64,000 nt of DNA from contig CAJINV010000014.1 of the NCBI GenBank assembly GCA_905178155.1, forward strand, positions 1,167,858 through 1,231,857, in the 5' to 3' direction. Below the pieces are notes generated by a model that saw only the letters and a list, made by a program, of their open reading frames with translations, was not told the DNA's origin and did no database searches. Origin of the DNA: Amoebophrya sp. A120. Taxonomy: Eukaryota > Protista > Dinoflagellata. Shown in pieces: positions 1-47,641 of the stretch (position 1 is its first letter; each line of letters begins with the position of its first letter). The position numbers and the translations under genes are program-made.

Positions 1-2988
1 AACGACAGTTCCATATCCTTCTCCCCCTGCTACTGCGCTCCGGAGTGGGCCAACTTTCTGATTGAGGACGGCGACTTTTTGAAAGTGGGGCACCAACTGG
101 ACGTGTGGAGCGTGGGCGTGTCGCTCTGTGAGCTGATCACCCTCGACGCGGTGTTAAAACCGAAGTACGTCTCGATTTACAGAAACACGGGCTCCCACAG
201 AAAAGCCGGGTTTCTGTTTCTCGAGTGGCTCGCCAACGGAAAGGAGGGGCTGGCACTGGATCAATCGGTACTGTATTGAATCAAAACGCTGACCACCACC
301 AGATATATCTTTCTGTAGCTCCTAGTCAAGTTAAAAACAAAAACTTTTTTGTTTGTACAACACTGCAAAAAGCAAAAGTTTTTGAGCACAACGACTTGAT
401 TTTCGTGTGCTACAACTATACCTCTCGTCCGCCACAGATTTCGAAATTCGACCCCGAGTTTACGGATATGGTGCTGACCCGCATGCTGAATAAGAACCCC
501 ATGGCCCGCGTCTCCCTGTATCCCAGAGAAGAAAGCAGGCAGGTCATATTTGTATATGCAAGAATAAACACACCGAATCAGAAAAATCTGTCTTGGGCGG
601 CCCCGTAGCATGCTGTTTAGGATATGTCTTTGTTTGTTTGTTTTTGCATAACAAATATGACCTGCCTTTTTTTTTCTGTGGGATACCCTGGCCGACATGC
701 TGAATCATAACTACGTGAAGGACTGCATCGTGCCCGGCCTGGATACGACGATCGACAAGAAGCAGGAGCACCTGGGCGACAAGGAAAAGGTGAAAAAGCA
801 CCGGTTGGAGCGCTTGGAGGTGAAGGAGACCGACCAGCCACCGCTGATCAAGGGCGTCTTGTGGAAACTGAACTCGGACGGGGACAAGGAAAACGTGGAG
901 CACTGGCTGCGACGGGACGTGTGGCTCGACTGCAAGGGCAACCTGTGTATGCATTGCAAATATGTCTGGGTCTGGAAGGCTGTAACTTGTGATGCTACCT
1001 GTACCTTTGCACTCTACATAAGATCTGTATTGCATGAAAAGCAAATAAAGAGGTGCGCTTTTTGCTACGCGGGGAGAGAATTTCTCATGCGGTACGAGCA
1101 TCAAGGAGCCCTCGCAGAATCTCTGATGCTAGGGCATGCATTACAGACATCAGTGGTCATGCAAAATATGCATGACAATCCTGGCACTTTTCCAGACCCA
1201 GACATTTTTGCACTTTGTACTGTGCTACTACTCCCAGAAAAAGAACAAGCGGCTGGTGATCCTGGACGTGAAGCACCTGGCCACCGCGAAACTGAGCAAG
1301 ACCGGGGAGAAGTCGGTCGACAGTCTGAAATGCGCGTTGCCGCACGTCATCTGCGTCGACTTCGTTTTGGAAGAGTCCGAACTGTCCGACGAAACCAAAA
1401 ACATATTGAAAGGAAAAAATTCCCCTCCCCACATTGAAAAGGTATGTTTCCGAAAATCTGTGTTGCTGATTTGAGGCCACAAATCACATTTGTCTTGCAA
1501 GATGGCAACGCCACAGGTTCCGCCGCATTTTGCAGGCGGTTCGTCATGCTGTTGGGCCTACAGCGCAGACGCTTGTCATGCTAAGCGCCTAGGCCAAAGC
1601 CTCTCTACCCAGGCTTGATATGGGCGCGCAGTCCTCTCCAGCAAGACAAATTTGATTTGTGTACACAGATCCAGCATCAGAAATTCCGTTTTGATATGGG
1701 GCGGGGGGATTTTTCCTTTCGATAAAACGCGCACGAAACCCAGTACTACGCGGCCGAGAGTCACGAGGAGTTGAAAAAGTGGTGCAAGGCGTATAACCTG
1801 CTCAGGTGTTACAATCTCAAACGTTACAATAGAGTCTGGAACTTGTGAAGCAAGAAGTGCATTATCTGGCCAACTCTCATAGGATTGCGCATGACAAGTT
1901 CTGGAGTCCCAATCCGCACTACGATCTGGCGAAATTTGTATTGCAAAAAGTGGAATGCTGTCCGAGTCTGTCATGCTCATCATGCAATATAAGACCAAGA
2001 CTCTATTGAAAAGTTTGAGATTGTAACGTTTGAGCAGGTCATAAAGCGCTCGAGAACGTGATCCAGAACCCGGACAAGTTTGACGTCACCGACGGGCTGG
2101 CTGGAAATCAGAAGGTGCACGTGTCGGCTATGGCCCGCTCAGGTGTTACAATCTCATCAAGTCGGTTCTTACCATAGAGTCTGGAATAAATCTGTGATGC
2201 AAGAAGAAGTGCATGAAGATCTAGTTGTAGCCAGGTTTCACAGGATTGCGCATGACAAGTTCTGGAGTTCCAAATCGCGCCAGAATCTCCTTGAGAAATT
2301 TGTATTGCAGAGAGCGGAAGAACTCGTCTCTGCGAGTCTGTCGTGCTCATCATGCAGGACAAATTCCAAACTCTATCGTTGTAACGCTATAAGATTGTAA
2401 CACCTGAGCGAGTTATATCGGCCAGCATGGTAGAGGAGTTCCGGGAACTGCGGAAAATGCGGAACCGAAGAGAAAAGATCGATAACCACCCGCAGTACCA
2501 ACCAGTTTTTGAGAAGGAGTTGTGGAAACTGAATTCGGACGGTACCTGAATTTTTCAGGCTAAGGTTTGTGATGTCAACACTGATTGTCAGATTGCATTG
2601 GCTGTTGTTTTCTTATCCGGTTTCCACTCTGTGTTGATAATTCATTTTCACTTCGATCACAGGTGACGCGCTCCAGGAGACCGACTGGACCTTCCGAAAG
2701 ATGTGGCTCGCAAAGAACGGCGCGCTGTGCTATTTCAGCAAGAAGGAAAACAAGGAGCTGATGTACTACCGCCCGGAGGACATCCGGCAGGTAACCTACC
2801 GAAAGTTGAAGTACCCCCAGGAGTGCTGCCGACCGCACGCGTTTGAGCTGGCCCTGAAAACCAGCGGGGATAAGGAGCTGGAATTCGCCCCCGGAGTGTT
2901 CGCGGCAGAGGAGGAGAGCGTGATGGCGATCATCTTGGGGTGCATCGAAAAGTACCAGAAAATCAAAAACTCCGCAACCAGCAGCTGA
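1..2988 (+). CDS. Ser/Thr protein kinase (C-terminal part of catalytic domain) followed by two PH-like domains; 5' end lies outside the window
   Basis: Exons 1-267, 438-518, 691-947, 1225-1402, 1729-1791, 2049-2128, 2423-2541, 2663-2988 total 1371 nt in one open frame. Kinase motifs SPCYCAPEW and LDVWSVGVSLCEL; duplicated PH-like segments LWKLNSDG..W.R..WL...G.LCY. GT-AG introns 268-437 and 2542-2662, plus five TIR introns. Confidence 0.88.
519..685. mobile_element. TIR introner (non-canonical intron), singleton family A
   Basis: Ends tatcccagagaa...ttctgtgggata, inner arms ggcaggtcatatttgt/acaaatatgacctgcc. DR ccctg at 514-518 and 686-690. Removing 172 nt gives ARVSL|ADMLNH. Confidence 0.92.
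948..1219. mobile_element. TIR introner, family B (orientation 2)
   Basis: TIR tgcaaatatgtctgggtctggaa / ttccagacccagacatttttgca. DR ctgtg at 943-947 and 1220-1224. Removal gives KGNLC|YYSQKK. Confidence 0.93.
1404..1724. mobile_element. TIR introner, family C
   Basis: TIR tattgaaaggaaaaa..cccc / gggg..tttttcctttcgata. DR aaaca/aaacg. Homologous along its length to 61821-62148. Removal gives DETKN|AHETQYYAA. Confidence 0.9.
1792..2043. mobile_element. TIR introner, family D
   Basis: TIR tataacctgctcaggtgttacaatctcaaac / gtttgagattgtaacgtttgagcaggtcata. DR aggcg/aagcg. Removal gives KKWCKA|LENVIQ. Confidence 0.93.
2129..2417. mobile_element. TIR introner, family D
   Basis: TIR tatggcccgctcaggtgttacaatct / agattgtaacacctgagcgagttata. 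DR tcggc at 2124-2128 and 2418-2422. Removal gives KVHVSA|SMVEEF. Confidence 0.93.
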
Positions 2989-4143: not shown

Positions 4144-6546
4144 ATGTGTCCGAACCTCACGCCCGCCAGTGCCAGCTCCTCCTCGACCGGAGGCTCGCCC
4201 TCGGCGTCTGCAGCAAAGCCACTGTCACCACCTGAACCAACCGAGATCTTCTGCCACTTACCACTTCCAAATGGGACTTTTTACACCCGAAAAGTCAACA
4301 TAATCGATTACGGTATGACGTTTGCGATGGTAAAAAGACACTTCCTGCAGGATGCGCAGATTGCCCACCCGGAGATTCTGGGTAGCAGTCAAAAATGGCA
4401 GTTTTTCACCGACCAAAATTTCTGCATTCCAGACGTGAACCCGATTGGGATGTTCTGCCCCTTACCACTTGTGGAAAACGGCAACAGTAATACAACACGA
4501 CGGGGTATCCAATGCAAATGATGTGCCTGGGTCTGGAAGACGCCCGACGCTTTTCAGGCGGTTTGCGCATGTGCGCGAAGGGCGGGATACATAGCACGGA
4601 AAGCATGGCAAGTTCTTTTCTGCGGGGGCTTCTCCATGCCTTGTCTGCATAAGAAAACTTCCGTCCCCGCCTGGAGACAAAAATTGCGCATCTTTTTTTA
4701 CTGACTGTGTATACAGCACAGAAGATTTTTCGTCCTTTCAGAATCCGCATTTGAAGTTTGCTTTCTTCCAGAGGGCAGTTCCTGGCTCGCCTGGGCAGTG
4801 CCCAAGAAGCTTGCTCCACATTGCGTTCTTCCAGACCCAGACATGTTTGCAATGCATACAGGGTAAAAAGATCGAGGAAGACGAGAAACGGTTTGCGATA
4901 TGAGAGTACACAACTAGTACCCCAGGTTCTCAATTCTCATGCAAAACAGTAACTCCACACTTTCCCTCGTGGTCCTGTCACTACTATGCATGATAGGTCC
5001 ATCTTGCAGCCCAAACAGCATCACAACCCTGGGAAAACTTTATCTTGCAAAACCAGGGGGAGTCGTGAGGTTGTGCACTCTCATACAAGAAGCACGAGTA
5101 CTACAAAATTGCGGAAACAGCACCTGACTTTCACGACGATTTTTTTCTGAAGCCAGCGACCGAGAACAGCGAAAACTCCTTGTCGAAGGGGAATGAACTG
5201 TCCTACTACTACGCCCACGGCACAAAGGCGGACAGTAGCAGCAGCCAAAATAGTACAACGGCGCGGGCGCCGCTTGAGCTATCGCAGACAGCGTCGAAGG
5301 GAACAATATGCTCTGCAAAAGTTGTATCATAGTCGTACTAATTGCATTCGTGCAGGACAAATCCTGTTTCATAGCCAAATCAGCGTTAGGAATTCCATTT
5401 TTCCTCCTGGAAAAGTTTGTGATGCGATTTATAGATACTTACTAGAACGATACTTTTTTTGCAATCCATAAACAAGTGCGACGCACAACAAAAGGCAAAG
5501 TCCGTTCGGAACCAACATCGAATTGTACGAGACAATCACAAAGTATAGATGGTTTGTCGTTATGTGTTGAGCTCCTTTGATTTGTCATGCGGAGCTGCGT
5601 TTTACCTTTACAATTACATGCAGATACAGACCTCGTTTTGATGTTTTTGGTCTTGATATGCAGAACGCGATCGCAAAAATGACCGCATTGCATCAAACAT
5701 GCAGGTACTCGTTCGAAGATCACAACAACACGACGGTGAAAGTGTTCGTTCCGCTCGACAACGTGGGCAAACTGGACGCGAGCAAGGTCGAATCGAGGTT
5801 TGGCGAAAGGTATCATAAGGACATAGATACTCATACTCTTGTTTGTTTTCGGCGCATAAGAGTTTAGTGAGGACGCATTAGTAGGCTGGAAAGAACGAAA
5901 ACGAGAAGCAAGAGCGTCTTTAGTGCCTTTTCTCCTTGTTATGTGGCGTTGTATCATTGTGACTTTAGAATCCGCCACCCCAGGTCCTTCGAGCTCCTTG
6001 TCCACGGTTACCAGGGAAAGAATTGGCGACTCGGGTGCGCAAAGACGCACGAATTCATCAACGTGGAGAAGTCACGACACGCGATCCGGAACAACAAAGT
6101 CACGCTCTATTTGCACAAAGCGTATCCACTGCACATATCGATCTGGGTCTGGAGGAAGGCAGATGTAATCGAATCCGTCATGATCCTGCATTAGCATTTT
6201 GATTTTTGTTTTTCTGACCTACAAGAGGGCTTTATGCAGCAAGAGCAACAAGCAGAGCATATCCATATGCATAACTAAAAACAAGTTACGCAGGGGCCTT
6301 TCCTTGCTTGCTAACGGGAATGAAAAGAACAAGTGCCGCTCCTCCCCGAGAAACAAGCGCACTTATGTTGCTTAGGAAGCCTCATTTTCTTGTTTCGGTG
6401 CTACAGAACCAGAAGCAGCATCACTATCACAAGTTTGCATCCTTCGAGGCCCAGATGCCATGCTTGCAATGCATAGAGTGAACGACGGCGCGATCTGGTT
6501 TGACTTGTTTAAGAAGAAAGCCATTGGGGATGATGAGAAGCCATGA
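4144..6546 (+). CDS. CS (p23/SGT1/CacyBP-like) domain co-chaperone-like protein, about 329 aa
   Basis: Exons 4144-4505, 4864-4898, 5091-5306, 5476-5542, 5705-5809, 5984-6122, 6481-6546 total 990 nt in frame. Contains SYYYAH and ITKYSFED..TVKVFVPL..V....VESRFGERSFELLVHGYQGKNWRL...KVTLYLHK...WFDLFKKK, which resembles the calcyclin-binding-protein CS domain. GT-AG introns 5543-5704 and 5810-5983, plus four TIR introns. Confidence 0.82.
4506..4858. mobile_element. TIR introner, family B (orientation 1), diverged
   Basis: tatccaatgcaaatgatgtgcctgggtctggaag ... cttccagacccagacatgtttgcaatgcata. DR cgggg/caggg. Removing 358 nt gives TTRRG|KKIEED. Confidence 0.87.
4899..5085. mobile_element. TIR introner, singleton
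   Basis: TIR tatgagagtacacaac / gttgtgcactctcata. DR tgcga/caaga (diverged). Removing 192 nt deletes a TGA and gives KRFA|KHEYYKIA. Confidence 0.83.
5307..5470. mobile_element. TIR introner, family E
   Basis: tatgctctgcaaaagttgtatc ... gatactttttttgcaatccata. Perfect DR aacaa at 5302-5306 and 5471-5475. Removal gives SKGT|SATHNK. Confidence 0.87.
6123..6475. mobile_element. TIR introner, family B (orientation 1), strongly diverged
   Basis: tatccactgcacatatcgatctgggtctggagg ... ccttcgaggcccagatgccatgcttgcaatgcata. DR aagcg/gagtg. Removal gives LYLHKA|NDGAIWFDLFKKK. Confidence 0.8.
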
Positions 6547-7790: not shown

Positions 7791-10700
7791 ATGGCCTCTC
7801 GAGGTCGTTCCACCGTTGCGTCATCTTCCAGCGGCGCCGCTTCATCTGCTTCTGGTCCTAACATGACCAGGCGCCCGACAATCGAGGAGACAAATCGCGA
7901 CTCCAGGACTTCAACCTCGTCCCCAGGTGCAGCAGATACGCCGGCTGGACAGACAGAAACTACAATTTCGGGTGCGGGTGGCTCTGCAACAGAACAGCAA
8001 ATGCGGAGCTCCAGTACAGTTTTTAACCAAGAAGTCCAAGAACCATCCTCGAGCATCCGGGCGACCCGGCGGTCCACCCGGTCCATCCGATTCATCGAAG
8101 ATCCGGTGCGAGACGAGATCGCGGACCAGGACAAGAAGGCGTTCTACGACGTGGAAAAAATGATCATGAACGACGTGCACCTGCACAACGACAAGGAGCA
8201 CTACATTGTCCCGCCGGTCAGGTGTTTCGAGCCGCAGGTCACCCGCGTGAAGGTGCTGTTCCCGCTGGACCTCGGCGCCGATGAGCTGACCACCCAGCAG
8301 GACATCCAGCGAACCGGGTTGGTGGTCGACAACCAGCACCCGAGGGGGAAAAAACAGGTGAAAATTTGTTGGGACACGGACAACAAGGATGAATTCGAGG
8401 AGATCGCGGAGGAACTCGACGAGAGTTACGCGCAGCACGTAATGGAGGACCAATTTGACCTCGGGGAGAAGTCGAAACGGCGGAAGAAACTGCTGCCGGC
8501 GAAGGCCGACAGCTGGGAAAAGGTGGAGAACTTGCAGATCATCCCGCGGGTGTCCTACCGCGCGCACCACTACGAGGGCCGGTTCGACGTGGATGCAAAC
8601 GTGAAGGACATGAAGGCGAAGTTCTACGACAAAGCGCACGGCCAAAAAGTCTCCGCCCACGCGGACGCGATTCAACTGGTGCCGGAACGGGTGTCGCAGT
8701 TCGACCAGCACGAGGTGGCGCAGGACGGGTTTTATCGGTACTACGATAAGAACGGGCAGTTTCGCGACGACGCGCTCTTCGCGTCCAGCACCTTCGGCCA
8801 GGCGGGGAAGTCCGCGGAGGGCCCGGGCGGACCACTGTCCTTGGACGGGGGGCTGACGGATTGGCTGCAGGGCCCGACCTTGATCAAAAACACGGTTTTT
8901 CAGGACCCCTATTCCACGCATTCCCGGTACTACGGGGCCACGTACGTGGGGAAACAAAAGCGCTTTAAAAAGTCGGTCACGGGAACCGCAGACGCCCTGA
9001 GACAGAGCAAGAGCGAACTTGCCGCGGCAGGCAGAGGGGTCGTGGACAACAGCGACGAAGAAACTTCAGATCTTCCTCAACAGCCGATTGACTACGAGGA
9101 CGACCCGCCGGTGCTGCCGAAATCCCACCCCTTCCACCCGAAGACGGTGGAGAAATTCAACAAGAAGTTCTTCAAGGACGTCCCGCTACCCGGCCCCATC
9201 ACCGCGGAACTCGAGGCAATTCCGGATCGCGACCCCAAGCGCAAGACGAAGTCGGTCATGGAATCGGCCGGGGGAGCGCTGGGTAGTGTAGGGGGAGATT
9301 TGCAGGTGGAGGATTACGTCAGTTCCGAAGAGGAGCGAGAGAAAGAACGACGGAAGCAATTGTTACAGGGGAAAAACCGGAGTAAAACCAGAACCACAGG
9401 TACAACTACACCAGGTGCCGCAATGCCGCCCACCGTGGACGACTTGATCAATCCCGGGCCTTTGCTGGAAAGGAAATCGGAGAAATTTCAGCGCGAGGAG
9501 CAATATCCTGTGCAAAAGTATCGTGCTCGTATTGCAATCATGCATTACAAATTTTTTTCTTATACGAAAATCCGCATTACAAATTTTATTTCGCATGCCG
9601 AGGAAATGCATTTAGACGAGTGCGATACTTTTGCAATGCATAAGCAAGAGAAGCGGACATCATCATCTTCGCAGCAACAACTGCACGAAACCCTGTCCGA
9701 TGTGCCGACGGATGAATTCGAGGAGGCGCTGTACCGCGGTGCGCCGAAGACCGTAGACGTACTAGACCCCAGGGACTGGCTGCGGTCGGACCAGGACAAG
9801 ACCAAGGTGGAGATGCGGGGGAACCCGGTGGTCTCGTATGTGGAGGAGCATTTTGAAATGCCGTATCAACTGCAAAAATGTCTGGGTCTGGAAGAATGCC
9901 AGACTTGCCATGCAGGTTTTCCATGACCCATGAGGTCTGGTATGTAGGACATAGCATGACAGATTCTGTGTTAGTTCGACTTCTATCATGCCTATCCTGA
10001 ATGAGAAACTGCCTCTCGATTAGGTCAAAAGTGGGCAGCTTTTGGTAATCATGCAACACAGATTTTCACATGATTCAGATTTAGCATGACAAGTTCCTTT
10101 GTTCCAGACCCAGGAGACACTTTTGCATTTGATATGCCGGACGGCAAGTTGATGAACAGTTTGCTGCCGGATGTGCCCGACGGCAGCGAGCGCTCCCCCG
10201 AGGAGGGCGCAAAGCTCGCATGGAAACTGCGAGAGCAGGCGATCAAAGGTGCCTACATGGAAAAGAAACTGCCGACAGAGAAACACGAGTACGTGTTGGT
10301 TTATGGGACCGCGGCCGGGGGAACTGAGGACAGTGAGGTGGTCGACGGCTACAAGTGGGGCAAAGAGTTCTACGCACCCTGGGTGCCGTACCCGGACGAG
10401 GTCGTAGCAAGTGACTCGGATGAGGAAAGACTAGGGACTGCTGGGGCTGCTGGTGCATCCACGTCGGCGGCGCAAAGTAGAACTTCGAAGAAGAAGCTCA
10501 AGAAGAAAACGCTGCCGCACTTTTCGCCCGAAGAGCTTATTGAGATGCAAGCGTGTCAGGAAATTTACGGTGTAAATTACGACCCTTCGAAAGTGCCGGA
10601 GGTTCTTTTGTCGGACAAAGCTAGAACAAGTGACCCTGCGAAGGACGTGCAACAAGAGCGAAGAAGTAGAGGAGAGGATGAACAAGCAAATAACGCTACT

Positions 10701-13700
10701 GCAGTTTCGAACGCGCAAGTAGAACCTCCACAGGACCAGGAGAGTATGCAAGACCTATCAAGTTCTACCCCTGAACAAGGAGATCCCCGTAAAACGCAAA
10801 CGGAAACCACTACTGAGACTGTTACCATCGCGACTAGGACCGAAGAGGTTGGCAGCTCTACTAGAAGTGGCACAACTTCAGCCACCTCCCAGCAGAAAGG
10901 AAAGGCAAGAGGCGGGCATAAAACAAAAAACCAGCCCGACTACGCAGATTTCGTGGACGGACAGATGCACTACAGTCGGTACGCTTACGAGGATATGCTA
11001 AAGAAGTTAGAGGAGGACGGCTTCACAGTTTTAAACAAGGCCACGCCGGTGATGGAGCTGCCGGTGAGATCCAACCTCTTCGAAGACTACCATGCGTTCG
11101 AACTGAAGAAGAAGCGGGCAACCGTGGTGGAGAACGCGAACAAAAAGTCGGTCGCGGTCCGGTTTTCCGGGGCGGAACAACAACAAGAACAAACCGGTGA
11201 AATGAACTCGACACGAGCGTCGAAGCAGGAAAGCTCCTTAGAACATCAAGGAGCGAATGGTGGCTCTTTCGACATGGCAACGACCGCGCTTGCGGAGAAA
11301 GCGAGGGCGGAAACGGAGAATGTCAAAGATCCGAAATCGTTTCTGAAGCGGGAGACGGACCACCAAGCAACCGAAGAGTTTCGCCGGTCGCTGACCGACG
11401 AGCACAGCTACGAGGCGTTTATGCACGTGGGGCACAAGCTGACCGGCTTCTTCGATGCCGAGGGAGACTACCACGCACAGCAGTCGAACTTGCACGACAT
11501 TCGGGTGGCCCGGGTGAAGCGGTGCGCTCCTTACAAGGGGTACAGCGAAACGAAATTAGACGGGTCCAGCCCATGGCTGCCGCCGGCGCACCGTTGGGAG
11601 GTGAGCGTGTTGGGGAATAGAGTCTGGCGCCACGAGCCGGTGGTCGACAACCGGCCGATGGTGGGGGTCAACGCGCGATTGGAAAAGGGGGAAAAGGAGT
11701 TCACGAGCAGCTACGACCCGGTGGCGGAGGGGTATGACCCGTATAGCGCAGCGAAAAATAGCTACGGCAAGAAAAAGCACTTCCCGCCGAACGACATTTT
11801 GAAACGGTACTACGCGAACACGAATCCGAAGATGAACATTTACGCGTACATTGGCAACGGGCACGTGGTCGACGCAAAGGACTTACGGGACGAGTTTCAC
11901 CACGTGTCCGACATTTACCAGTCGGAAGACCACATTGTCGACTACCCGGGATTGTTCACGAGCAAGGAACAGCAGATCAAACACCTCTACAAGCAAAAGT
12001 ACGACGAGAAGCACCCCATCAAGGACACGGCCGCCTCGTCGGCCCACCGGGACCCCATGTTCTGGTTTTACGAAGTGGCGCAGGAAAAGAACCCGGAGGA
12101 CGAGAAGGCCCAGGACGGGCGGGGCACAACCTTGAAGAAGGGGACGAGCTACTTGCGGCGCGTGTACCGCGACCTCGACTTCCCCCCGGCCAAGGAGGCG
12201 GAGGACAAGAAGCACCCAGTCTACGACTTGTTGCACTTCCTCTTAAACGGCGGCGAGACGGCGGAGGAAAAGGAGAAGCGGGAGCACAAAAAGCAGCACG
12301 AGAAGGAGCAATTGCAGCAATTCGCGAAGAAAATCGACTACACGCGGGAAGCGGGGATTGGCGGGACAGCTGCTCCGACGCTGGCCCGGCAGCACGAAAC
12401 GCCGATCGAGAAGAATGCAGAGCACATGGAAAGGTTCTTCGAGAAAAACGCGAAATACAAGTACGGGGAATTAAATTACGGCGACCTGGAGAAGGAGAGG
12501 AAACGGAGAATAGCGGATAGGGTGAACAACGATGCTGCTCTCTACCACGTGAACCGGGCGAACTTCTCGGAGATGCTGGAAATGAAGGCGTCGGTCGTGA
12601 AATCCCGGGTGGATCAGAGAGAGTCTGCGATCGCGGAGGCCGAAAGGCAGTTGGGCGTCGCGGGTCTGGAGAACAATAAAGTGCCTGTTATCCCGTTGCT
12701 CGAGATTCCGCTGCCCGATTACGAGAAAACCTTGAAGCCGCACTTCGACGACCGTATCCCGCTGCCGGAACAGATTAAGGCGAAGGAGCAGTACAAAAAT
12801 GTCTACCACGCGAAACGACGGCACCCCGCGAATCCGGAACACTTCGAGAACGAGGTGGTCGTGCTGGAGAAGCACGGCTACAACCCGGAGTACGCTTTGC
12901 AACCGCTGTTACCCCCGGTGTCGAAAGAGGAATTGGATGCCGCCTGTATCCGTGCGGGCGGTCGGTTGCAGGACGGGGACAGAATCCGGGACTTGGAGTT
13001 GCTGAAGCAGGAGGAAGATATTAAGAAGTTGCTCGCGTCTTTGGGGGAAGAAGAAGTGGACTACGGATTCAAAAACAAGAACGAAAAGATCCACTGGAAC
13101 ATATCCAGAGCAAAAACGTCCCCACCCCAGAGTCGAGATGGGGATCTCGCAACAGAAATCGAGAAGTGTTGGGAGTCAAGCATGACAAGTTCCTGTCTGT
13201 ATTGTAGTGCAGTTTAGCAAGTACAGCCGCAACACAAATCCATCTACTCATCCTGTTTACAGCATGACAAAGCCCAAAACACTATTGGAGATGCCTCTCG
13301 TGGGGATTCGCATTACAACTCTTCCTGTAACTGCAAATCTGCATGACAACTATTGTGTGGGGATGTTTTTACTCAGGATAGAACATTGTGGACCCGAGGG
13401 TGGAACTCCAACCGCACGAGTACCCGATTAAGGTTTTCGGTCCGGGTATCAAATGCAAAAATGTCTGGGTCTGGAAGATTGCCAGATTAAGATTTGTAAT
13501 GCAGTTTTTTCATGATCCAGGAAGACTGGAATGCAGGACCTAGCATGACAGATTCTGCGCGATCTCTCTCATGCCTATCCTGCATGAGAAACTGCCTCTC
13601 GATTAGGTCAAAAGTGTACAACTTTTGGCAAGCATGCAACACAGTTTTTTGCCTGCTTCGGATTTAGCATGACAAGTTGCATTTTTCCAGACCCAGACAT

Positions 13701-13834
13701 TTTTGCATTTCATACCGGGGCTGGACCCCTTCTTGGGCGAAGTGGTGTCACATCTGCCGAAGCGGAAGAGCGACGGACAGGGCCCGCCAAGCATGTGGGA
13801 CCGGATTCACGACATGATCGGGCTGGGGTCGTGA
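7791..13834 (+). CDS. Large hypothetical protein (about 1688 aa), charged and low-complexity
   Basis: ORFs 7791-9926 and 10086-13217 join, and extend to TGA at 13832-13834, after removing four TIR elements plus one DR each (144, 276, 284 and 273 nt); 5067 nt in frame. No domain recognised. Confidence 0.85.
9504..9642. mobile_element. TIR introner, family E (in frame and stop-free, hidden inside the ORF)
   Basis: TIR tgcaaaagtatcgtgctcgt / acgagtgcgatacttttgca. DR agcaa at 9499-9503 and 9643-9647. AT-rich 144-nt block within a GC3-rich exon. Confidence 0.9.
9864..10134. mobile_element. TIR introner, family B (orientation 1)
   Basis: tatcaactgcaaaaatgtctgggtctggaa ... ttccagacccaggagacacttttgcatttgata. 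DR tgccg at 9859-9863 and 10135-10139. Removal gives HFEMP|DGKLM. Confidence 0.95.
13102..13380. mobile_element. TIR introner, family F (279 bp)
   Basis: TIR tatccagagcaaaaacgtccccac / gtggggatgtttttactcaggata. DR gaaca at 13097-13101 and 13381-13385. Removal gives IHWN|IVDPRV. Confidence 0.93.
13447..13714. mobile_element. TIR introner, family B (orientation 1)
   Basis: tatcaaatgcaaaaatgtctgggtctggaa ... ttccagacccagacatttttgcatttcata. DR ccggg at 13442-13446 and 13715-13719. Removal gives VFGPG|LDPFLG. Confidence 0.95.
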
Positions 13835-14547: not shown

Positions 14548-17500
14548 ATGAAACGTCTCGGCCGCCTTTTGTCCGTCTCCGCTTTTTCCGCCTTCGTGCA
14601 GGGCGATCCACCGACCCCCGAATTGATCTGGCGCAAACTCAGTGACACGGTAGACGTGACCCTGGTCCCAAACGCAGCAGACGTCACTGGCGTCGAGCTC
14701 TCGTCTAAAAAAGCCACGCTAAGGTTCATTCGAGATGTTGGAGCTGTGCCCTCGTCGCGGGGTGAAGGTGAAGCGGACAAAGCCGTGGACGACGGACCCT
14801 CCCAGTCTAGCTCTTCGGCCAAGCAAAGTGCGCAGCAGCATCCTGCAGCGCAGCATACGGAGGATCAAAAGCCACTACCTTCGGGAGGACGACATGGGGA
14901 ACAGCAAATGGCAGGACTGCAACATGCCGAAATGCTGCGACAGGATGCGAACAAAGCTGCCTCTACGGCTTCTGCCGCCATCGTCACGGAGCAGGACTTG
15001 AACCGAATCAAGACTTCCGACTACAACGAGGATAAGATGGTGGTGAGCCTCCTCGGGGAGGAAAATGCCCAGTCCGAGTCGGATACAGAGCTGGACCTCT
15101 TAGACCTGGAGCTGCAAAACGCCCGGCGCTCCTCTCCTTCCTCTAGCTTTTTGCAAGTGACCAAACAGGACAACTTGAACCTTGGTGAAAACATCGATCT
15201 GCGAAGGAATCTCGCGAGCGCGTTTGAATCGTTAGAAAGAGTGGTGGTCGACAGCGGGAACTACTTGATGAGCAGTAGCGGGGGCACTTTCACTAAAACT
15301 CTGTCGGCTGCTGCCCCTAGCACAAGTAAGAAACAGAAGCAAGTCGTCGCGCACCTGCAACACGAGAAGATTTTACAAGGAACTGCGAAGATGATGAAAG
15401 GTGCTGCCCCTACAGCACCCGCAAGTGTGAAGAGTTTGGCAGGAAACAAAAAGTTTATGACGAAGCAAGTCACCGCCAAGACGAAGACCACCCCTGCGTC
15501 TTCTGCCGACAAGAAATTGGCTGACGGACGACCAGCGCCGGCGGAAAAAAAGCACGACCCGACCACAGGAAAACACGAGCAAAAGTTGTTCTCGACTTTG
15601 CGACAAGAGTACGAAGAGCTGGCTGAGGATAAATTTCTCAATTACCGCAACATCAAGAAAATTATCGTCGAGCGCATTCCGGACAAATCCAACGCGCTGC
15701 TGATCATGGCATTGAAGGAACAGGGGTCAACAATATCTTCATCCCCATCCGAGGACAAGAATTCCTCGCAGGAGCTGCACGAGCAGCAGGATCGTGACGC
15801 GACGACACAGATGAAAATCACGATCGCGCCAGTGCAAAAGTGGAACACCGGCGCCAGCCTCGCATCTCCGATTTTGCCCAAGGCGAGTCTGTTGCGCTCG
15901 CATGTGCACTTCTTTTTCCCGGTTGTGGACGAGAGTGAAGTTGTTGATTCTGCTGGGAGCGAGATGAACGGGGATCATGGCCAAGGAGGAGTAGAAGAAA
16001 CATCAACCGCAAAGCCGAATGCAGCTGCAAAGAACATATCTAGCGGGACGAGAACAACTGGGAACCCCTTCCGGCGGAAGAAGCATCCAAAGTTCTTGCA
16101 CGGGACGTCGACTACTAAAAGACCTGCTGGCCGCTTGGAGAACAACCCCGGTGAGAAGAAGCCGAAAATCTCCGTTCCCGATTTCGCCGCGAAACCGCTC
16201 GCGAGTATCATGGACGAGTACTTTGCCGCGGCGAAGAAAGCGACGGAAGAACACGCGGTGCGTCTTGTGGTTGATGCTTCTGAGCAACTGCAATCCAGTG
16301 CTGCTGCTGGCGGAACTCCAGCGTTTTCGACGACTGCAACGACTTCCAAAACTCTTTCATCTTCATTCCAGCAAAAGAGTGCGATCCAAGAGACCGCGAC
16401 CACAGCTGGAGGTGCAGAGCAAGTTCTTGGGGCTGTTGATTGTGGAGCAGCATCGTCAGACGACATTGAGAAATCTGTCGAGAAGGAACCTTCGCAGCTG
16501 GAAAAGGACGCGATGGAGTGGACTTTGATGGAAGCAAACGAAAATCACAAGTCCGGCGCAGACAAGTGGACTAATTTGAAGAACAAATTTGCAGATCGGA
16601 AAATGATGACAAGTTCAGCTTCTTCAGATAATAAGCAACAAACTTCGACTTCCAGCACAAGAACATCAGTGGCTACGACGGGACAGCAAGGCAAGTCCGG
16701 GATGACAAACAAGGCCCAACTACATCAACTCCGACACGAGACGGAATTGACAAAATTTCTACGCCAAGACGTGAAGAAGGCACAGGAGGCGGCAATTCCG
16801 GTGCGAAGTGATTTAGAAGTAGCCTCCGGCTCTTCCGTTGTTGTTCCCTCACATCAGGCAGGTGAACTTCCACGACCGGCAGCGAGCAACTTTCACTTGC
16901 TGAAAGCTGAGATCGAGCAACGGGAGCAAATTGACAACTCCGCGACCGAGAACGCACTCAAGCAGTACGAAGCGGACCGGGAGAAGGAAAAGGAGCGGTC
17001 GGTGGTTATCATATGTAAAAACACCCCCACACCATACACAAGATGAGAAGTCTGCAACACAAATTCCAAAGTTTTGGGAGTTCTGCATGACAAATCTAGC
17101 CCCATAGTGCAACCCTGTTTAGCTAGTTAAACAGCATCACAGATGTAGCACATCGTGCCGATTGGAGCATGACAAATTTAGAAACATGACTAAAAACCGC
17201 CTTCCATGGGGCTCCGCATGAGAAGCATTTTTACACTGCAGATTTGCATGACGACTCTGGGGCGCGGACGTTTTCACATAGGATAGTGGTGGAAAAAACC
17301 GATTCGCAAAGAGCGAAAGCAGCTTCCTCCGCTGGGGGCGTTTTTGACACAGCGGAGGTCGAGAAGAGCTTGAATTTGAAGCCGCGAAACTTGGAAACCG
17401 ATGTGAAAGAGCAGTTTGAGGAGCAGACAGCCGGACCGTCATCAAACGCCGGAGAATATTCCCCAGGTGGACCTCCTGTGGGAGTCATTAACCACCTTGT

Positions 17501-27150: not shown

Positions 27151-27523
27151 TGTTTCGGTGACGTTTTACAGACCGCTTGTGGTTGTTTGGCCTACAAGCC
27201 TCTTCTTCGGTAAGTAGTTGAGAGCGTGAAACGAAGAAAATCAGGGCGTGTCGGCTTCCGTTGTTTCGTACCCTTGTTTCGGTGACGTTTTACAGACCGC
27301 TTGTGGTTGTTTGGCCTACAAGCCTCTTCTTCGGTAAGTAGTTGAGAGCATGAAACGAAGAAAATCAGGGCGTGTCGGATTACGTTGTTTCGTACCCTTG
27401 TTTCGGTGACGTTTTACAGACCGCTTGTGGTTGTTTGGCCTACAAGCCTCTTCTTCGGTAAGTAGTTGAGAGCGTGAAACGAAGAAAATCAGGGCGTGTC
27501 GGCTTCCGTTGTTTCGTACCCTT
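27151..27523. repeat. Tandem repeat, 3 x 124 bp, near-identical
   Basis: Units start with tgtttcggtgacgttttacagaccgc at 27151, 27275 and 27399; only a few substitutions, in unit 2. Confidence 0.95.
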
Positions 27524-31463: not shown

Positions 31464-34400
31464 ATGAAGCGCTCACTTGCTTTGCATAATGGAGGAAATG
31501 CTCGTCCAGGTTCCGGACAACTTGGTTCTGACCCCTACCGGGCGACGACGCTCGAGTCTGCACCTGTGATTTCCCCAGAAGAAAAAGCGAAATTGGAGCA
31601 AGAAATTTACTACGCACTGAAAATTATATGTTGGGGTCTGAAACGTCGCAACTCGTAGTCGTACTGGTAAATCCAATCGGGATCGTGCAGTGAAAATGCT
31701 GCGCGAAAGCTAAAAGTTTCCAACTTCTAGTACCTGCTACACGACAAAGCGGGATTTTCTCATGCGGAGTAGGCATTAAGAAGCGAAATAAGCAGTGATG
31801 CTTTTGTGCGCATTTTTCCAGACCGGCATGATCTTCGTTGTCCAAGCTCAAGCATGCCAGAATGGGACACTCTTCCAGATCCTGACATATTTGCTGTTAA
31901 TAGCTGCCACGAAGGGAATCACCGAAGCCCGTCTTCGCAGATCAATTCTCCAAATTTCATTTTTTACAGAGGAGCACTTCCGCATGCATATGAGTAAAGA
32001 GAAACATGCAGATTTCGGGATTTGCACTTCTCGCGGTGGCTGGTGGCCTCACCAAATGGACTTCTTGTTTCGTAGGAAAGATTTAAGGTAATACAAAAGC
32101 TTGTGCACTACCTTGTCAAATGCAAAAGAGTACAGTGCTCTCAGGGCCAGGCAACACCCGCGAGTTGCTGCATGGCGTGTTGCATTTGTTATTGCTACAA
32201 ACATATTGGAAGGAGATCGCGTGCGCGATCGGCTGTTTATGGTGTGGTTGGTGTTTTTCCCGTGGATCGGTTTGCCACTCGCGAAGCCACGATTGACAGG
32301 CTCCAGAAGGAACTTGATAAAGTGAAAGCGAAGATGCCCGATCTGCCACCACTGTTGAAGAGAAGTGGCAGATTCTACGTTGATGAGCTGACCCACCAGG
32401 GCAAGTTCAACAGTCTCCCGCGAGAAGATATGCCCTGCTCAGGAGTTGCAATGTCAATGTCTCCCGTTCCAATATTTTGTTTTCGCTCATTTATTATGTC
32501 GAATTTGCAAGTGAGGTGCTTGATCTATCTTTGTTGTCCTTACAGCACTGAATCACTCCAGCTGTGTTCTTATCCTCCCAGCATCAGATGCACATACCAA
32601 GTCGAGTTCTTAGACCTACGAAGCAGAGCTGCTGTCACGCAAATAGAAGACGGAGAACTCACTGAACTTGTCTTATCTGGATTCCTCATGAAGAAGAATT
32701 TCAATTGCTGGCTAACAGTTGAGGTTGCAACACCTGAGCGGACTTCTATACCGGACAAAACATTTTTCATCGGGGAGGTGAATTGGCAGAAAGAAGAGCA
32801 CTCTCGTCCGCTGGAGGAGAAGAAAAAGGCCAAGGAACGGGAGTTCAAGAAGCACCAGAGGGAGGAGGAGTTTGAAATTCAAAATTTGAAAAAACAACCT
32901 ATCAAACTGAAAGGGGTTATTTTCACGCACTTCTGATAGAACTACAGCAAGAGCAAGACCCAAGAACAGCGTGTTTTCTCGGCGTGGTTGTGTTAGCGAA
33001 ATAGGGAAAGTGCTGTGCTGTTTGCGCCAGTCAAGGTCGAGAAATCATTTGCTTTTGGTAGCGAAAGTACAAGTGCCAAGGTTTTGCTTTCGTGTTATTT
33101 CAGTAGCACAATTACGATATAATTTGGTGTTGGTCTGTAACTCTAAACACGCGCAAGCGAAATGTTCGCCCTTTGTTTCACCTGCAATGTTACCAAGTCA
33201 ATATGTCCATGGGACCGCGTCCCGCCTTGCGAAGAGTTTCCAACTTCATCTCTCAGAGGGCCGAGATGACCCTTTGCCTTTTCAGTTTCATAAGATTCGA
33301 AGGGAAAGGACCTGTGGATGAGAGTGTGAGAGAACTCCACGACTTATCGGTAGCGCAGGACGACGCTCGCGACGAAAATTAAGCTGGCAAGAAGCCGGTG
33401 TGTGTTTGTGGTTGGTATACGGCAACACCAAGAAACGGAGCAAACCTTGCATATCCATGGAAGCCTCTGCATGGGAATAAGTAAGCATTCTGGCGTACCA
33501 CGCTACGAATGTTTTGCTTGGGGTTTCATATCGGATTCTTGTTTCTATATTATTTGCGCTTTTTAACCAGCATGAGAATGACCAACTTTTTTCATGCAAT
33601 AACATTTCAGTGTCTCACCAGTTTGGACAGACTCTCACCTCTGTTGGCGCAGATCAAGTCTCCGTGCACCCGCGCGCAGAGGAGATCTGTAAAATGTATA
33701 AATGAGTGCATCTATCTTCGCTTCATGAATTCGTCCTGGCATGATTTTGATAGGTAAACGCCGTATCTAAGTTCTGTGTGCCATTGCTCGCAAAACCACA
33801 AACCTTGCATGTCTATATTCTGAGTGAAGTGGACGCCCGGTGGATGCCTCCTATTAACGAGTTTGCCAAAGAGGCGGATTTCGCAAAGTGGTGTTGCGAG
33901 GAAGCAGGCCTTTTGAAGTTGAGTGGTGAGCCTTGTGAGTCGAAGGTTATCGTGATGTCAGCTGGGGTGAAATCGACAGAAGCAGAATGGAAGCAACCTT
34001 TTGATGCATGAAATGCCTCACATAGAGACAAGATGGCGGTACTTTGGCATGGCAAGCAATTTAAGGTGAGGATGCTGATCCATCGCATTCCTGAACCTGT
34101 AAAACAAATTATTCTATTTTGACGATTTCCCGGACGACACTGCCATACATAGGGGGCGAGCCGGAGACGGTCTTAACAAGAATTGGCTGGCCGCAAGTGA
34201 CGACGAGAAGGAGCAGATGCGACGCGACTACAACGAGAAATTCTTGCCCAAGCAGGAAGCTGAGCGTACCAAACAAGTATCTCATGAAAACAAGGCAGAT
34301 CTCTCCTGGTAGAAAGTAAATGGCGCTGCCTCGCTCAGTTATGCGGACTGGCCATGACATTTTTAGTTGTGCCAGCAGTTGGCGGGCTCGGGCACTAGGT

Positions 34401-36343: not shown

Positions 36344-38356
36344 TGATATTTCAGCTGCTCTGGCACTTCCCCTTCAGCAAAACTTAAAAAAAAACTAACT
36401 CTACTGTTCGCCGGGACACACGCCGCCAGGGGCCCTGCGCTTGCCGGGACGGCCCCGCGGGTGCGTGGGTTTCCCGCCACCGCGAACCCAGCATGGCCGC
36501 CGACGGGGGCCGCGGCCGCTTCTTTTTTGTTCGCCCCGGCTTTTTTTTTTGCTGACTTTGCAGAAAAAATGCCCGGAAACGGGAAAAAAAGGGCCCCCCG
36601 AAAGCCCAGGCGCCCGGGGTGCCGGCCCCGCCAAAGGGGGCGGAGAGACCACTTCGCGCTTTTTTTTGCCGTTTTCGCAGTTTTTTTCGCGTTTTGCCGC
36701 TTTTTTTGCTGTGTTTTGCGTATTTTTTTGCGTTTTGCCGGGCATCATTCGAGCTCGCCGGCTCCCCCCAGCCAATGGCAGGCGAACTTGTTCTCCAACA
36801 ATTGGCGGGAGGAAACTCGACCGAAAACCGGGAAAACACGAAAAAAAGAAGCAAAACGCGAAAAAAAGCTGCAAAAAACGCGAAAAAAAGCTGCAAAACG
36901 CGAAAAAAAGCTGCGAAATCGGCAAAAAAAGCGCGGGGCGGTCTCTTGAAATTCCACAAGCAGCGCGCGCCTGTTCCGCGTCGCAGCCAGGCGGAACCTG
37001 GTTGCCACCTAGGAGGCCGAAGCTGGAGCTTACGCCAAGCCTACGTCGTTCGAACTGGGTGTAAAGATTCGGAGTAAAAATCTCCGGCAAAATCGGAACC
37101 GCGGGAAAAAAAATCTCCGGCAAAAGCTGGAAACGCGAAAAACCCTAAGTGGAATCTAAGTCAAACCTAAGTCAAACCTAAGTAAAACCTAAGTCAAACC
37201 TAAGTGAATCCGCATGGTATGGCCTAGGTTTCACTTAGGTTTCACTTAGGTTCCACTTAGGTTTCACTTAGGTTTCACTTAGGGTTTCACTCGGGTTCCA
37301 GTTTTTTTCACTTAGGTTTCACTTAGGTTCGACTTAGGTTCGACTTAGGTTCCACCTAGGTCTCATCTAGGTCTCACTTGGGATGGTTTTTCCGGATTTC
37401 CAGCTTTTGCCGGAGATTTTTACCGTCGAAAAAAGCAAAAAAAGTCGCAAACGGAAGAAAAAAAATCGCAAACGGAGGAAAAAAAGTCATAAACCGAAGA
37501 AAAAAAGCCGCAAACTGGAGGAAAAAAGGCGCCTCAATGCCAGGAAGTGGCGGCTCGGGTTCGTTGCTATCTTTGCCCAAACAAGAGGAAAAGTCGCAAA
37601 AGTTTCAGCCCCCGTTCGTGGGGGAAGGATGCAGCTGGCTGTGACCGTAGTGCCACCGTGTAAACGGCGTCGAGCGACGGCAGTAGGTGGGCAGCCAGTT
37701 TGTTCTCTCTCCCGCAGGCGGGCGCTGGGGCGCTATTTTGCAACTTTTCCAAAAGGGAGTGGAAATGTCGCAACAAATCCAGCTCCCGCGCGCGGGGGAA
37801 AGAACAAAATGGCTGCGGCCGTAGCGCCAACGTGTAACTAAGCGCTGGCTGCCACACGACGGCACTACGTTGGCAGCCATTTTGTTCTTTCTCCCGCAAG
37901 GGGGGGCTGGGGCTTGTGCGAATTCCCCAAAAGCAAGAGTAGCAAACGGCCCAGCTCTTCTCCAGTGCAAACGCCGCGCAAGGAATCTCATCGCGCGGTG
38001 TCTCTTTTTGTTCTTTGCCCCGCTATGTCCCTGATTCGCAGGCGCGATTTTGCGCCGAGCCGTTGTCGCGAGGTTCATTTGTGTTGGGTCTAGTCTATGC
38101 TGGTTGGCATGATGGAAAGAAGACCGATGGAAATGTGCAGAACGCATCAAAATGCCATCGGTCTACGTATGGCAACCCAACATAATCAGAACAGAGTCCA
38201 GATATCAATCGGCTTTTGGAGCGAAACACGAGGGGACTACACTTAGGAATCACTTAGGCCAAATGGTCCTTTATTGAGAAAGTCCACTAGTAATAAATGA
38301 TATTTCAGCTGCTCTGGCACTTCCCCTTCAGCAAAACTTAAAAAAAACCAACTCTA
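36344..38356. repeat. About 2-kb palindrome-rich non-coding segment bracketed by 60/59-bp direct repeats
   Basis: tgatatttcagctgctctggcacttccccttcagcaaaactt(a)nc(t/c)aactcta at 36344-36403 and 38298-38356. Inside: fold-back 36655-36935, head-to-head 11-mer arrays 37140-37380 within a 25-bp inverted repeat (37109-37133 / 37397-37421), and further inverted modules 37680-37940. Confidence 0.85.
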
Positions 38357-45062: not shown

Positions 45063-47641
45063 ATGCCGCTCTTTTCACCATCGTCCACGGTTCCAGCGTC
45101 ACGACGCACCCCGCCACTTGTCCTCCACTTCGCCGTTTCATTTTTCACGACCGCTTTTATTCCGCGAACCGTCTACAGTCGCGCGACCGCTACTTCTTCC
45201 CGGAGCGGCGGCGCTGCTACCGCTCTCAACAGTCACAACTTTCCGCTGGAGGTGGGTGTCGACAATGCGCCAACAAGACCAACTTCAAGTGCCTATGAAG
45301 ATGCAACCACCGCAGCAGTGGATAGCAGCAATTTTGAGAGTAGCCAGAACAGTCTGCAGCCCGGGGACCTGTTCGATAACATCATTCCCCCGGAAGAGGA
45401 TAGAGGAGTGCAACAGAACAGGCCTTCCACAGCCAATGCTGGGAGACAAGATGAGGAAATAAACCGCCCAGAAGTTCTTGCCGCTAGGGACGAGTTTGTG
45501 CAAAGGAGACAGTCTTTCCCTGACGTCGCGACACCGGGAGCTGCAACCGGTGGCGCTCCTTCGTCAACTTCTTCTGACAGATTAGGCGGAGCACCGGCTG
45601 CACGATCATTGCAGGAGTTGCAGGATGAAGAGGTGGTGCACAATGGGCGAAAAGAATTGGAAGACAGCTCGCCGAGAGCCAGTCTGGTCCAGAAAAGCCA
45701 GTCGAGCAGGTACTTCAGCGTCAGCGAAGAGCGGACTAATAATGAAGCGCAGCGGAATGGTGAAAAGCTTCTCCAAGAGCAGCAGCAGCAGTTGTTACAG
45801 CAAGAGCAGATGAAGATGCAGTACAACCAGGGTCAGGCCCCCGCCGGTGGTTCAGCGCCGGGCGCCACTTTCAACCCCCTACCCCCGGGCCCGCTTGCCG
45901 AAGACCCGGACACGGCGATTACGAAGTTTGTCATCGCGTCGAGCGCGAGCGGGGGCCAGATTGTGTACATCAAACTCGGATCCCACAACCCCCAGCTGCC
46001 CCCCAAGCCGCTGATCGAATCTGCACTGCAAAAACCGGTGGCAATTGCGGTGGACAATCCGAATCAGTTGCTCTACGTAGCTACGAGTTGCAAAGATATC
46101 CCACTAACGTAAATCTGAATGTTGGCATTTACAATTTTTTTTCGAGTAGACAGAGACAACTCTGTGATGCTAATTTACCGAAGGCGCGACGTCTTTGTCA
46201 TGCGTTACTGGAAGTCAATTACTACGAGTGCGATACTTTTGCAAAGGATAGTCGCAGACGAAAACGCGATGAAAGTGTTGCGCTACCAGCTGAAGATCCA
46301 GGAGAACGGAGAGAAGTTATCCGCTATCAAATGTAAAAATGTCTGGGTCTGGAAGGTTGGAACTTGTCATGGTAAATCTCAATCATGCAAAAATCTGTGT
46401 TGCATGAGTGCCAAAAGCTGCCCACTTTTGACCAAGTTGGAAGGGAGTTTCTCATGCAGGATAGGCATGGCAGAGACCTCACAGAGTCTGTCATGCCGAG
46501 TCCCGCATTCCAGACCTCAAGGGTCATGGAAAATCTGCATGACAAATCTGGCATCCTTCCAGACCCAGACATTTTTACAGTTGATATCCGCGGTGGCGAA
46601 GGGCACGGTGGCGCTGAACTTTGCCGCCACGGGGGTCAGTGTGGACTCGTTTGGGAACGTGTACTTCGTCGATGGAGCGACCGGTAGTTGTTACTTTGTG
46701 ATGCGTAATATTATGGTCGTGTGCATGCACTGATTATGGTTATTCCAATGTGTAAGTGTAACCACGAGATCGACGCTCAACCTTTTTCAGGCCGTATCTA
46801 CCGGGCCGACCCAGAGCACACGACAAACCCGGTCCTCCTCTACGACGCGACGCGGCTTCCGGAGCTCAGCGGGCCGAGTCACATTTACGTGGACAATTTT
46901 CATGTTTACTGGGCAAATGGCAGCCTCGGAACGAGCTCAGGTACAGTTTTTTGTATTGTGCTGGAAAGCTACGGATTAGATATAGATACTTCCACTCTAC
47001 CGAGGAAGAGGAAGCCGCCGTGCTCTGTGATTCACAGAAGGCGCCTTTCCAAAAATATGGTAGACAAGTTTTACAACTTCTTGAACTTGAAATAATCTCG
47101 AGCAACTTTTAATCCAGGTACCATTGTTCGCGCTCCGCTGAAGCGGCCGCAGTTCAAGGAGGATGGTAGCAAACCCCCGGGGTTGAAAGTCTTGACCAAA
47201 AACGCGGAATCCGCAAATTCCGTGTGTGCGGCGGGCGACACGGTGTTTTACACCTCGACCAACAACTTTTTCCGCGCCAGCAAAATGTCCACGGAGACCT
47301 CGCCCGTGACCACCGTGGACAAAACCCTGGACGCCGTGAGCGGGCAGTGTGCGTGGGAGAAAACCGGGTCGGTAATCGTGATCGACCAGAACTCAGTGTT
47401 CCGCTATGCCGGGGCACTGTCAGACAAGTACCCGGCCAACTCTGCTGCGGCGCTGGCGGGCTCGGTGCCGAAAGCCAGGTCGCTTCTGTTCCACCTCACC
47501 GGGGGCTCGGGGGTGGCGGTATTTGTCGATCCCGGGTCCGTTGGAAAGATTCAGCACCGGAGCGTCGTCGGCGACTTTTTTTCCACGCTTTTAGCGTTTG
47601 TATTGGGCGCAGGGGTAGTAGGAATGATTGCTGCGGTGTGA
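45063..47641 (+). CDS. Membrane-anchored NHL/YWTD-like beta-propeller protein (about 617 aa)
   Basis: Exons 45063-46081, 46256-46324, 46592-46683, 46791-46940, 47118-47641 total 1854 nt in frame. Blade motifs KPVAIAVDNPNQLLYVAD, GVSVDSFGNVYFVD, GPSHIYVDNFHVYWAN. C-terminal TM segment FFSTLLAFVLGAGVVGMIAAV. Confidence 0.85.
46082..46250. mobile_element. TIR introner, family E
   Basis: tacgagttgcaaagatatc ... acgagtgcgatacttttgcaaaggata. DR gtagc/gtcgc. Removal restores the blade motif LLYVA|DEN. Confidence 0.88.
46325..46586. mobile_element. TIR introner, family B (orientation 2)
   Basis: tatcaaatgtaaaaatgtctgggtctggaagg ... ccttccagacccagacatttttacagttgata. DR tccgc at 46320-46324 and 46587-46591. 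Interior aligns to the reverse complement of 9864-10134. Confidence 0.95.

Follow-up and report, generated by a model that had tools for sequence, protein, structure and literature searches.

A shared internal motif paired at three helical turns links introner families of Amoebophrya sp. A120 and suggests a common DNA-binding protein

Short inverted-repeat elements interrupt the genes of Amoebophrya sp. A120 in many apparently separate families, and the locus studied here raises the question of whether a single DNA-binding protein serves them all. The window, the whole stretch of DNA analysed, comprises 64,000 bp (assembly GCA_905178155.1, contig CAJINV010000014.1, positions 1,167,858 to 1,231,857; coordinates below count from its first base) of gene-dense eukaryotic DNA with mostly co-oriented genes, broken by such elements, fifteen of which, bounded by TAT...ATA, cover 3,813 bp. 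A first-pass annotation had proposed that families with unrelated terminal inverted repeats (TIRs) share an internal motif, GCAnnACA(A/G)AT, in pairs 31-33 bp apart, and that one protein, such as a missing transposase, recognises it in every family. All 24 sites listed there exist with 0-2 mismatches: the 16 plus-strand sites have 0-1 mismatch to the consensus, while among the eight minus-strand sites 1466, 1498, 1944 and 46403 are exact, 1976 has one mismatch, and 1549, 1581 and 46372 have two. One copy per arm was likewise recovered in family A (right, 646, exact; left, 596, one mismatch), whose mirror-position left copy near 548-559 has a 1-base insertion.

The window was searched for TAT...ATA ends with a 5-bp duplication, which yielded 18 candidates; 15 were kept, and 1026-1991, 32473-32901 and 50141-50773 (score 8, end and duplication mismatched) were discarded. 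A second sample was obtained by scanning with the TIR of family B, which returned at least 171 stretches and 158 loci, all from assembly JACKZZ01 (eight overlapping loci discarded, three trimmed); independence in this sample means different insertion sites. Together with the window, these loci amount to 644 kb and contain 386 elements, compared to 0 in 165 kb of shuffled sequence. The 377 elements of at most 400 bp were sorted into 27 families with lengths of 109-353 bp, and six of these have the B TIR in common, giving 22 family groups. Perfect TAT...ATA ends, which the finder demanded, are present in 369 of 386 elements; in the end profile of the 377, TAT reaches 98-100% and A 87-94% at positions 11-13, with families 8-11 lacking this A-tract. 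Exactly 5 bp of target site are duplicated in 324 of 386 elements and 6 bp in none, and no target sequence preference is seen. Short, non-coding, bounded by TIRs and a constant duplication, and dispersed in many copies, the elements fit miniature inverted-repeat transposable elements (MITEs), that is, non-autonomous TIR DNA transposons. The B TIR pattern had 0 matches in viral contigs, and family-agnostic end patterns matched four viral sequences and one prokaryotic sequence; in no case was there a far end and duplication to match, and these matches were taken as chance.

By their anatomy the window elements match the published A120 introner elements, for which passages of Farhat et al. 2021 (PMC7789003) describe the same inverted repeats (TAT, seven variable bases, at least three A), short direct repeats, a length of ~240 nt, non-canonical boundaries and many families. 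The features found here are a TAT-type inverted repeat, a direct repeat at the boundary and, for five copies, removal from the transcript with the frame restored, in runs that are only guessed to be RNA. The elements are already known. For the motif grammar, no description of an internal motif, spacing or end phasing of introners was found in full-text searches of the literature (figures, Roy et al. 2023 Current Biology, two supplementary files and 18 A120 rows lay outside this search), and the word "subterminal" did not occur once in the Amoebophrya papers that were listed. The passages and supplement text of PMC7789003 name no internal motif linking families, whereas here a shared, phased motif links them.

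The motif is concentrated in the elements. Of 27 exact matches in the window, 24 fall inside the 15 elements, and in the 363 elements from JACKZZ01 there are 566 exact matches in 88,008 bp (6.43/kb), compared to 2-10 per set in five dinucleotide shuffles (~0.06/kb); outside called elements the exact motif occurs at 0.43/kb, with many of these matches in decayed elements. The motif was refined to (T)GCA(T/A)(G/T/C)ACA(A/G)(A/G)T, and a site with at most one mismatch is present in every member of 24 of the 27 families, the remaining three being singleton families with none. With the refined matrix, elements contain 21.7 sites/kb and predicted exons 0.46, and the expected enrichment over canonical introns was observed, with 1.88 sites/kb in 62 predicted unique GT-AG introns (shuffled, 0.35). 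These introns are hidden Markov model predictions, of which 89 of 203 were used (62 unique, 23 element-like with 17 sites/kb, and 4 from other repeats with 0). Three TIR elements of other types, ~1.65 kb together, have 0 sites (L017:1612-2134, which has an 8-bp duplication and is nested inside a B-group copy, L028:11433-12242 and L058:2013-2331). At L018:1603-2034 a 111-bp TAT...ATA element, almost motif-free, is nested in a family-9 copy.

The proposed pairing held up in the larger sample, where 297 of 837 adjacent same-strand gaps measure 31-33 bp (195, 61 and 41), against a null mean of 34.6 and a maximum of 50 in 300 placements. This sharp peak lies at about three turns of B-DNA. A 31-33-bp pair is present in 229 of 363 elements, in 16 of 22 family groups when judged on consensuses (null 2.8, maximum 9 in 5,000), and in 11 of 16 clans after kin were merged. 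Same-strand gaps of two and four turns are rare, which therefore indicates one fixed geometry and not free phasing. Nor are the pairs explained by one recent tandem duplication, since Tandem Repeats Finder detected no array within any element and spacers between family groups are 37% alike, compared to 32% when shuffled.

In all 13 families with at least five copies, identity is higher in the motif core (0.77-0.95) than in other interior columns (0.54-0.80, P = 0.0001). Taking duplication mismatch as a clock, change amounted to 0.002 in the motif (confidence interval -0.016 to 0.020) and 0.010 in the interior (-0.007 to 0.028), a comparison with no power. TIR positions 4-14 of most families bear a weak, inward-facing likeness to the motif (mean -9.9 vs null -18.0, standard deviation 1.3), a score that comes largely from the A-tract, and five families lack the likeness. 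In family E this likeness lies 31 bp from the next site and makes a pair with it.

Motif position is tied to the element end as well. Measured from the end, the first outward-pointing copy starts in one of three ranges, 39-44, 48-54 or 60-65 bp; the distances cluster at 40-41, 48-52 and 60-63, and hardly any fall at 45-46 (2 of 525 ends). This quantisation is significant (P = 0.0005), and all sites within 100 bp give a best period of 10.2-10.5. Related families differ by 10-11-bp inserts: families 7 and 12, with a TIR in common, are set apart by an 11-bp insert ahead of the first motif; in families 8, 10 and 11, whose cores can be aligned with one another, the motif stands at 41, 51 and 60-61. 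Distances between opposite-strand sites peak at a period of 10.45 (R 0.40, null 0.19, P = 0.001), with the signal nearly nil at 11.0 (R 0.03, per-element version). When kin are merged to 16 clans, divergent sites alone keep this phasing (P = 0.035; 0.005 within 60 bp), and the best period remained 10.4-10.45 in all leave-one-clan-out runs. Element length is without clear phasing (R 0.25 at 10.5). Each of the 13 largest families has members in either orientation relative to the predicted transcript. This includes family F, in which every motif points in the same direction (8 and 7), and over 235 elements the motif strands are balanced (574 sense, 616 antisense). Strand independence and the 10-bp steps from the ends therefore support a protein reading duplex DNA.

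Contrary to what had been claimed, the TIRs are mostly related, as most families share TAT, about seven variable bases and then an A-tract. Moreover, 14 family pairs retain interior homology with the motifs masked, which reduces the 27 families to 16 clans, the largest taking in 12 of 27, and the interiors are mosaic. The view that the families form one mobile system is accordingly supported, in part through common descent, because TIRs and interiors are related.

A conserved 11-mer that is indifferent to transcript strand, repeats at three turns and shifts against the element end only by whole turns looks like the trace of a sequence-specific protein on duplex DNA working with the element end. 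We infer, with a probability of roughly 0.6, that the GCATGACAAAT-type motif is the binding site of one trans-acting protein mobilising all families, with an integrase-type transposase of Ginger/IS3EU-like kind, or a subunit partnering it, as the best candidate, and that the elements constitute one non-autonomous transposon system probably driven by an integrase-type transposase. In this scheme the tandem pair would be occupied by two protein units sitting on the same face of B-DNA; they would keep the element end, which lies an integral number of helical turns away, aligned for cleavage at ...ATA-3' and for strand transfer at positions staggered by 5 bp. Copies that can still transpose would be selected to retain the motif, and its distance from the end could change only in steps of full turns, while inner TIRs and spacers would drift, producing many apparent families. 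Passages of PMC7789003 count ~29,850 introners in 1,954 families in A120 and state their movement and splicing as open questions; one motif with whole-turn spacing rules would collapse these families into one system, and it argues for recognition at the DNA level despite the published conclusion of no transposase. The grammar supplies a 45-bp bait for protein pull-down and an end signature for an autonomous element, and mutations of the motif, or shifts of +5 bp and +10 bp, would separate transposition from splicing.

Constant 5-bp duplications without target preference, together with TA..TA ends, point to the retroviral-integrase clan. Iterated end sites are familiar from Tn7 and Mu. Ginger2/TDD elements have TG..CA termini, which are not matched by the TAT...ATA ends here. 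Their 4-5-bp duplications (range from an excerpt of PMC10045372) are matched. IS3EU/GingerRoot and IS481EU belong to the same clan (excerpts of PMC10045372 and PMC12730594): the TA..TA termini of IS3EU/GingerRoot are matched here, its usual 6-bp duplications are not, and because the duplication fails IS3EU membership the system may be said to work like IS3EU, not to be it; for IS481EU, the TNT..AYA termini fit TAT...ATA and the duplications (~4, 15 or 25 bp) do not. The term "subterminal repeats" was not found in a full-text search of the literature on IS3EU/GingerRoot and IS481EU. Excerpts of PMC12130899 list one A120 family with Copia-integrase similarity as "Ginger; 5-bp TSD, TA/TA termini", and most other A120 families as "TIR DNA, unknown" among 40 of the 58 A120 rows. 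The candidate relative of the mobiliser that fits best is the A120 introner listed there as "family 38" (Gozashti et al. 2025, PMC12130899), a Ginger-like entry which, compared by description only, is likewise a TIR element with a 5-bp duplication and TA/TA termini, has open reading frames (ORFs) resembling Copia/Gypsy integrase regions, and differs in being ~810 bp long with five copies. A functional parallel is provided by Lemi1/Emigrant, whose transposase binds repeated subterminal MITE motifs cooperatively near the TIRs (excerpt of PMC1636448); that system is pogo-like and its elements are not introns, whereas here the elements undergo splicing, and a single motif grammar extends over more than 20 family groups whose inner TIRs diverge.

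Several results weigh against a common transposase. Same-strand gaps outside 29-35 bp show no phasing (P = 0.43), so that general phasing of all same-strand sites was rejected and the helically phased sites of the first-pass annotation stand only in part, and a gap of 39 bp, frequent in B (76 of 837), is off-phase. First-site distances alone give a best period of 10.8-11.2, with 11 fitting as well as 10.4; with families grouped into 16 clans, opposite-strand phasing weakens, the P values being 0.087 overall, 0.38 at distances above 60 bp and 0.62 when only convergent sites are taken, and long-range phasing across elements is not established once kin are merged. An outward motif 30-70 bp from either end is missing in 58 of 377 elements and is present at one end only in 95, the motifs of family E face inward, and the inner TIRs vary so widely that one transposase would have to tolerate them. 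The unique GT-AG introns keep a 5-fold motif excess over shuffles. The B group is oversampled (190 of 377 elements) because the loci were chosen by the B TIR, and calling sites on family consensuses slightly favours conserved columns, a mild circularity. The search for a long TAT...ATA element with an ORF, as proposed in the first-pass annotation, turned up none: no autonomous element was found in the 644 kb, a small part of the ~115-Mb genome, where the longest element is 1,104 bp, and no transposase or integrase Pfam family was detected in 235 ORFs (44 from the window and 191 of 219 from the loci, viral, duplicate and a few short ones being excluded). Finally, passages of Farhat et al. report putative transposases in A25 only and rule out general transposase mobilisation in A120 (PMC7789003).

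Some of these points would be accommodated if the motif were read by a co-opted host DNA-binding or chromatin protein acting as an architectural helper (bending, wrapping or silencing protection), with a separate enzyme reading the TAT ends only, a possibility we consider unlikely. It fits all the duplex-DNA observations and would explain the tolerated diversity of inner TIRs, why many copies lie deep inside the elements, why no transposase turned up and why some sites remain in unique introns. However, exons hold the motif at close to background level and the three TIR elements of other types lack it, its position follows the element end, and the motif likeness at TIR positions 4-14, within the limits given above, hints that one domain reads both.

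The elements are also removed from RNA, as judged from contigs of runs only guessed to be RNA. No run catalogued as RNA was among those listed as matching, and raw RNA run X8, which touched 3 of 30 bins with flanks that did not match, was left out. Where the window has 635 bases (9499-10133) and 618 bases (13097-13714), record 5 of run X1 has 215 and 61, respectively, both shortfalls equalling two elements plus one 5-bp duplication each, and record 11 of run X4 joins 17001 to 17286, with an element and 5 bases out; these lengths therefore indicate that five copies were removed, each with one duplication copy. Taking out the element plus 5 bases restored open frames in five window genes, and over 235 elements the mean coding score was 9.75 for this removal, compared to 2.5-2.8 for 3, 4, 6 or 7 extra bases. 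In the DNA-like run X5 the elements are in place in long contigs at a depth of 43-48, and the summed depth over elements is very large, which is not a copy number.

That the motif is itself a splicing signal, with an RNA-binding factor or the pairing of arm copies aiding excision of non-GT-AG introns, seems to us distinctly improbable. Among 405 homology-found copies, 213 lie in a clearly coding context, 25 in a non-coding one and 167 are unclear, and excision therefore matters; U1 was not detected in the A120 genome (passage of PMC7789003), motif divergence climbs slowly with interior divergence (slope 0.14-0.19), and in 224 of 377 elements each of the two arms carries an outward copy. These features suit a splicing role, but the balance of motif strands and the lie of the one-directional family F both ways in genes do not; arm distances often differ by 8-12 bp and the copies therefore cannot pair in register, the period is 10.45 and not 11, the TIRs alone make the terminal RNA stem in two folded examples, family F among them (z -3.55 and -10.23), and motif retention does not differ between coding and non-coding copies (213 vs 25; low power). 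In our main reading, removal from RNA probably depends on the paired ends and not on the motif. The copies are strongly biased to coding DNA, though about half of the sampled DNA is predicted non-exon. Euglenid nonconventional introns are similar in being non-GT-AG, with paired ends and duplication-like repeats, and are probably MITE-derived, but their signal is a short code of CAG/CTG type within a few bases of the junction (excerpts of PMC11282704 and PMC12501133), whereas the motif here lies 30-60 bp inside and is strand-independent.

Among the predicted GT-AG introns, 23 of 89 are element-like and 18 of the 62 "unique" ones still hold the motif. At several loci (L029, L003, L041, L035) a duplication ending in G makes the left end G|TAT, a canonical GT donor, and at some right ends ATA is followed by G or GCAG, giving an AG acceptor; introners likely have a route to ordinary GT-AG introns via such G|TAT and ATA|G ends. 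More speculatively, and in our judgement very unlikely, one motif-bound protein would both mobilise the elements and, during transcription, mark their two ends for a U1-independent excision machine in either orientation. If so, a transposon end-binding code would have become the genome's intron-definition system, and decaying introners would pass into ordinary GT-AG introns as soon as they acquired G|TAT and ATA|G ends. Least probable, and largely refuted, is a motif without present function, inherited as homologous positions from one ancestor with internal repeats, for which shared TIR features, mosaic interiors, the 12-family clan and slightly more alike spacers (0.37 vs 0.32) speak, but against which stand the far better conservation of the motif core than of neighbouring columns in 13 of 13 families, spacers that keep their length with nearly randomised sequence, indels in whole turns, and the pair in 11 of 16 clans without detectable interior homology to one another.

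In the window, five introners and two canonical introns interrupt the host gene at 1-2990, in which reading of the translation suggests a kinase-like start and two repeated PH-like blocks (the unspliced pieces have no Pfam match). The first, of family A (family 14; 519-685, duplication CCCTG), has motifs at 596 (-) and 646 (+, G 40 bp from the right end). The B-group copy at 948-1219 (CTGTG), opposite in orientation to those at 9864 and 13447, has 995, 1033, 1090 and 1129 (-) and the pair 1138/1170 (+, 32 bp). Family C (family 7) is represented at 1404-1724, with one duplication mismatch, pairs 1466/1498 and 1549/1581 (-) and 1641/1674 (+), and the first outward G 63 and 51 bp from the ends. 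Two copies of family D (family 11) follow, at 1792-2043, with 1851 (-, 60 bp from the left end), 1889 (+) and the pair 1944/1976 (-), and at 2129-2417 (TCGGC), with 2200, 2308 and 2346 (-) and 2250 and 2354 (+).

Further along, a decayed B-group element at 4506-4858 has few motif sites and no 31-33-bp pair, and a decayed family-8 copy at 4899-5054 has weak ones; more decayed fragments with TIR remnants lie at 6123-6475, 31748-31902 and 34104-34147. Family E (family 2) occurs at 5307-5470 (AACAA; 5352 (+), 5425 (-)) and at 9504-9642 (pair 9542/9574 (+)), and an older E-group introner at 46082-46250, with one end and one duplication mismatch, has the pair 46170/46203 (-). B-group introners are found at 9864-10134 (TGCCG; 9913 (-), 9954 (+), pair 10053/10084 (+)), at 13447-13714 (CCGGG; 13502 (-), 13543 and 13582, pair 13636/13667 (+)), and, opposite in orientation to the copy at 9864, at 46325-46586 (TCCGC; pair 46372/46403 (-), 46457 and 46496 (-), 46537 (+)). 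Family F (family 6) is present at 13102-13380, with plus-strand pairs 13149/13180, 13229/13262 and 13310/13341 (last G 40 bp from the end), and at 17007-17285 (GTGGT; pairs 17054/17085 and 17134/17167 (+)). The copies at 9504 (with one duplication copy), 9864, 13102 and 13447 are those skipped in record 5 of X1, and 17002-17285 is missing from record 11 of X4. A second family C copy at 61821-62148 (CTCCT), beyond the span covered by the first-pass annotation, has the pair 61889/61921 (-), 61973 (-) and 62098 (+, 51 bp from the end). The pairs at 1138/1170, 1641/1674, 46170/46203 and 61889/61921 had been missed in that annotation.

Other repeats in the window include a ~55-bp direct repeat at 36344 and 38298 around a 2-kb block (36344-38355), which contains inverted A/T-rich arrays and head-to-head 11-bp telomere-like arrays (37144-37379). 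Three 124-bp tandem copies lie at 27141-27524, with their junction sequence again at 28655 and 30543, and a 15-mer recurs at 28124, 28403 and 28627. The ORF at 48868-49533 has a weak CD225/dispanin match (E 1e-5, under the curated cut-off).

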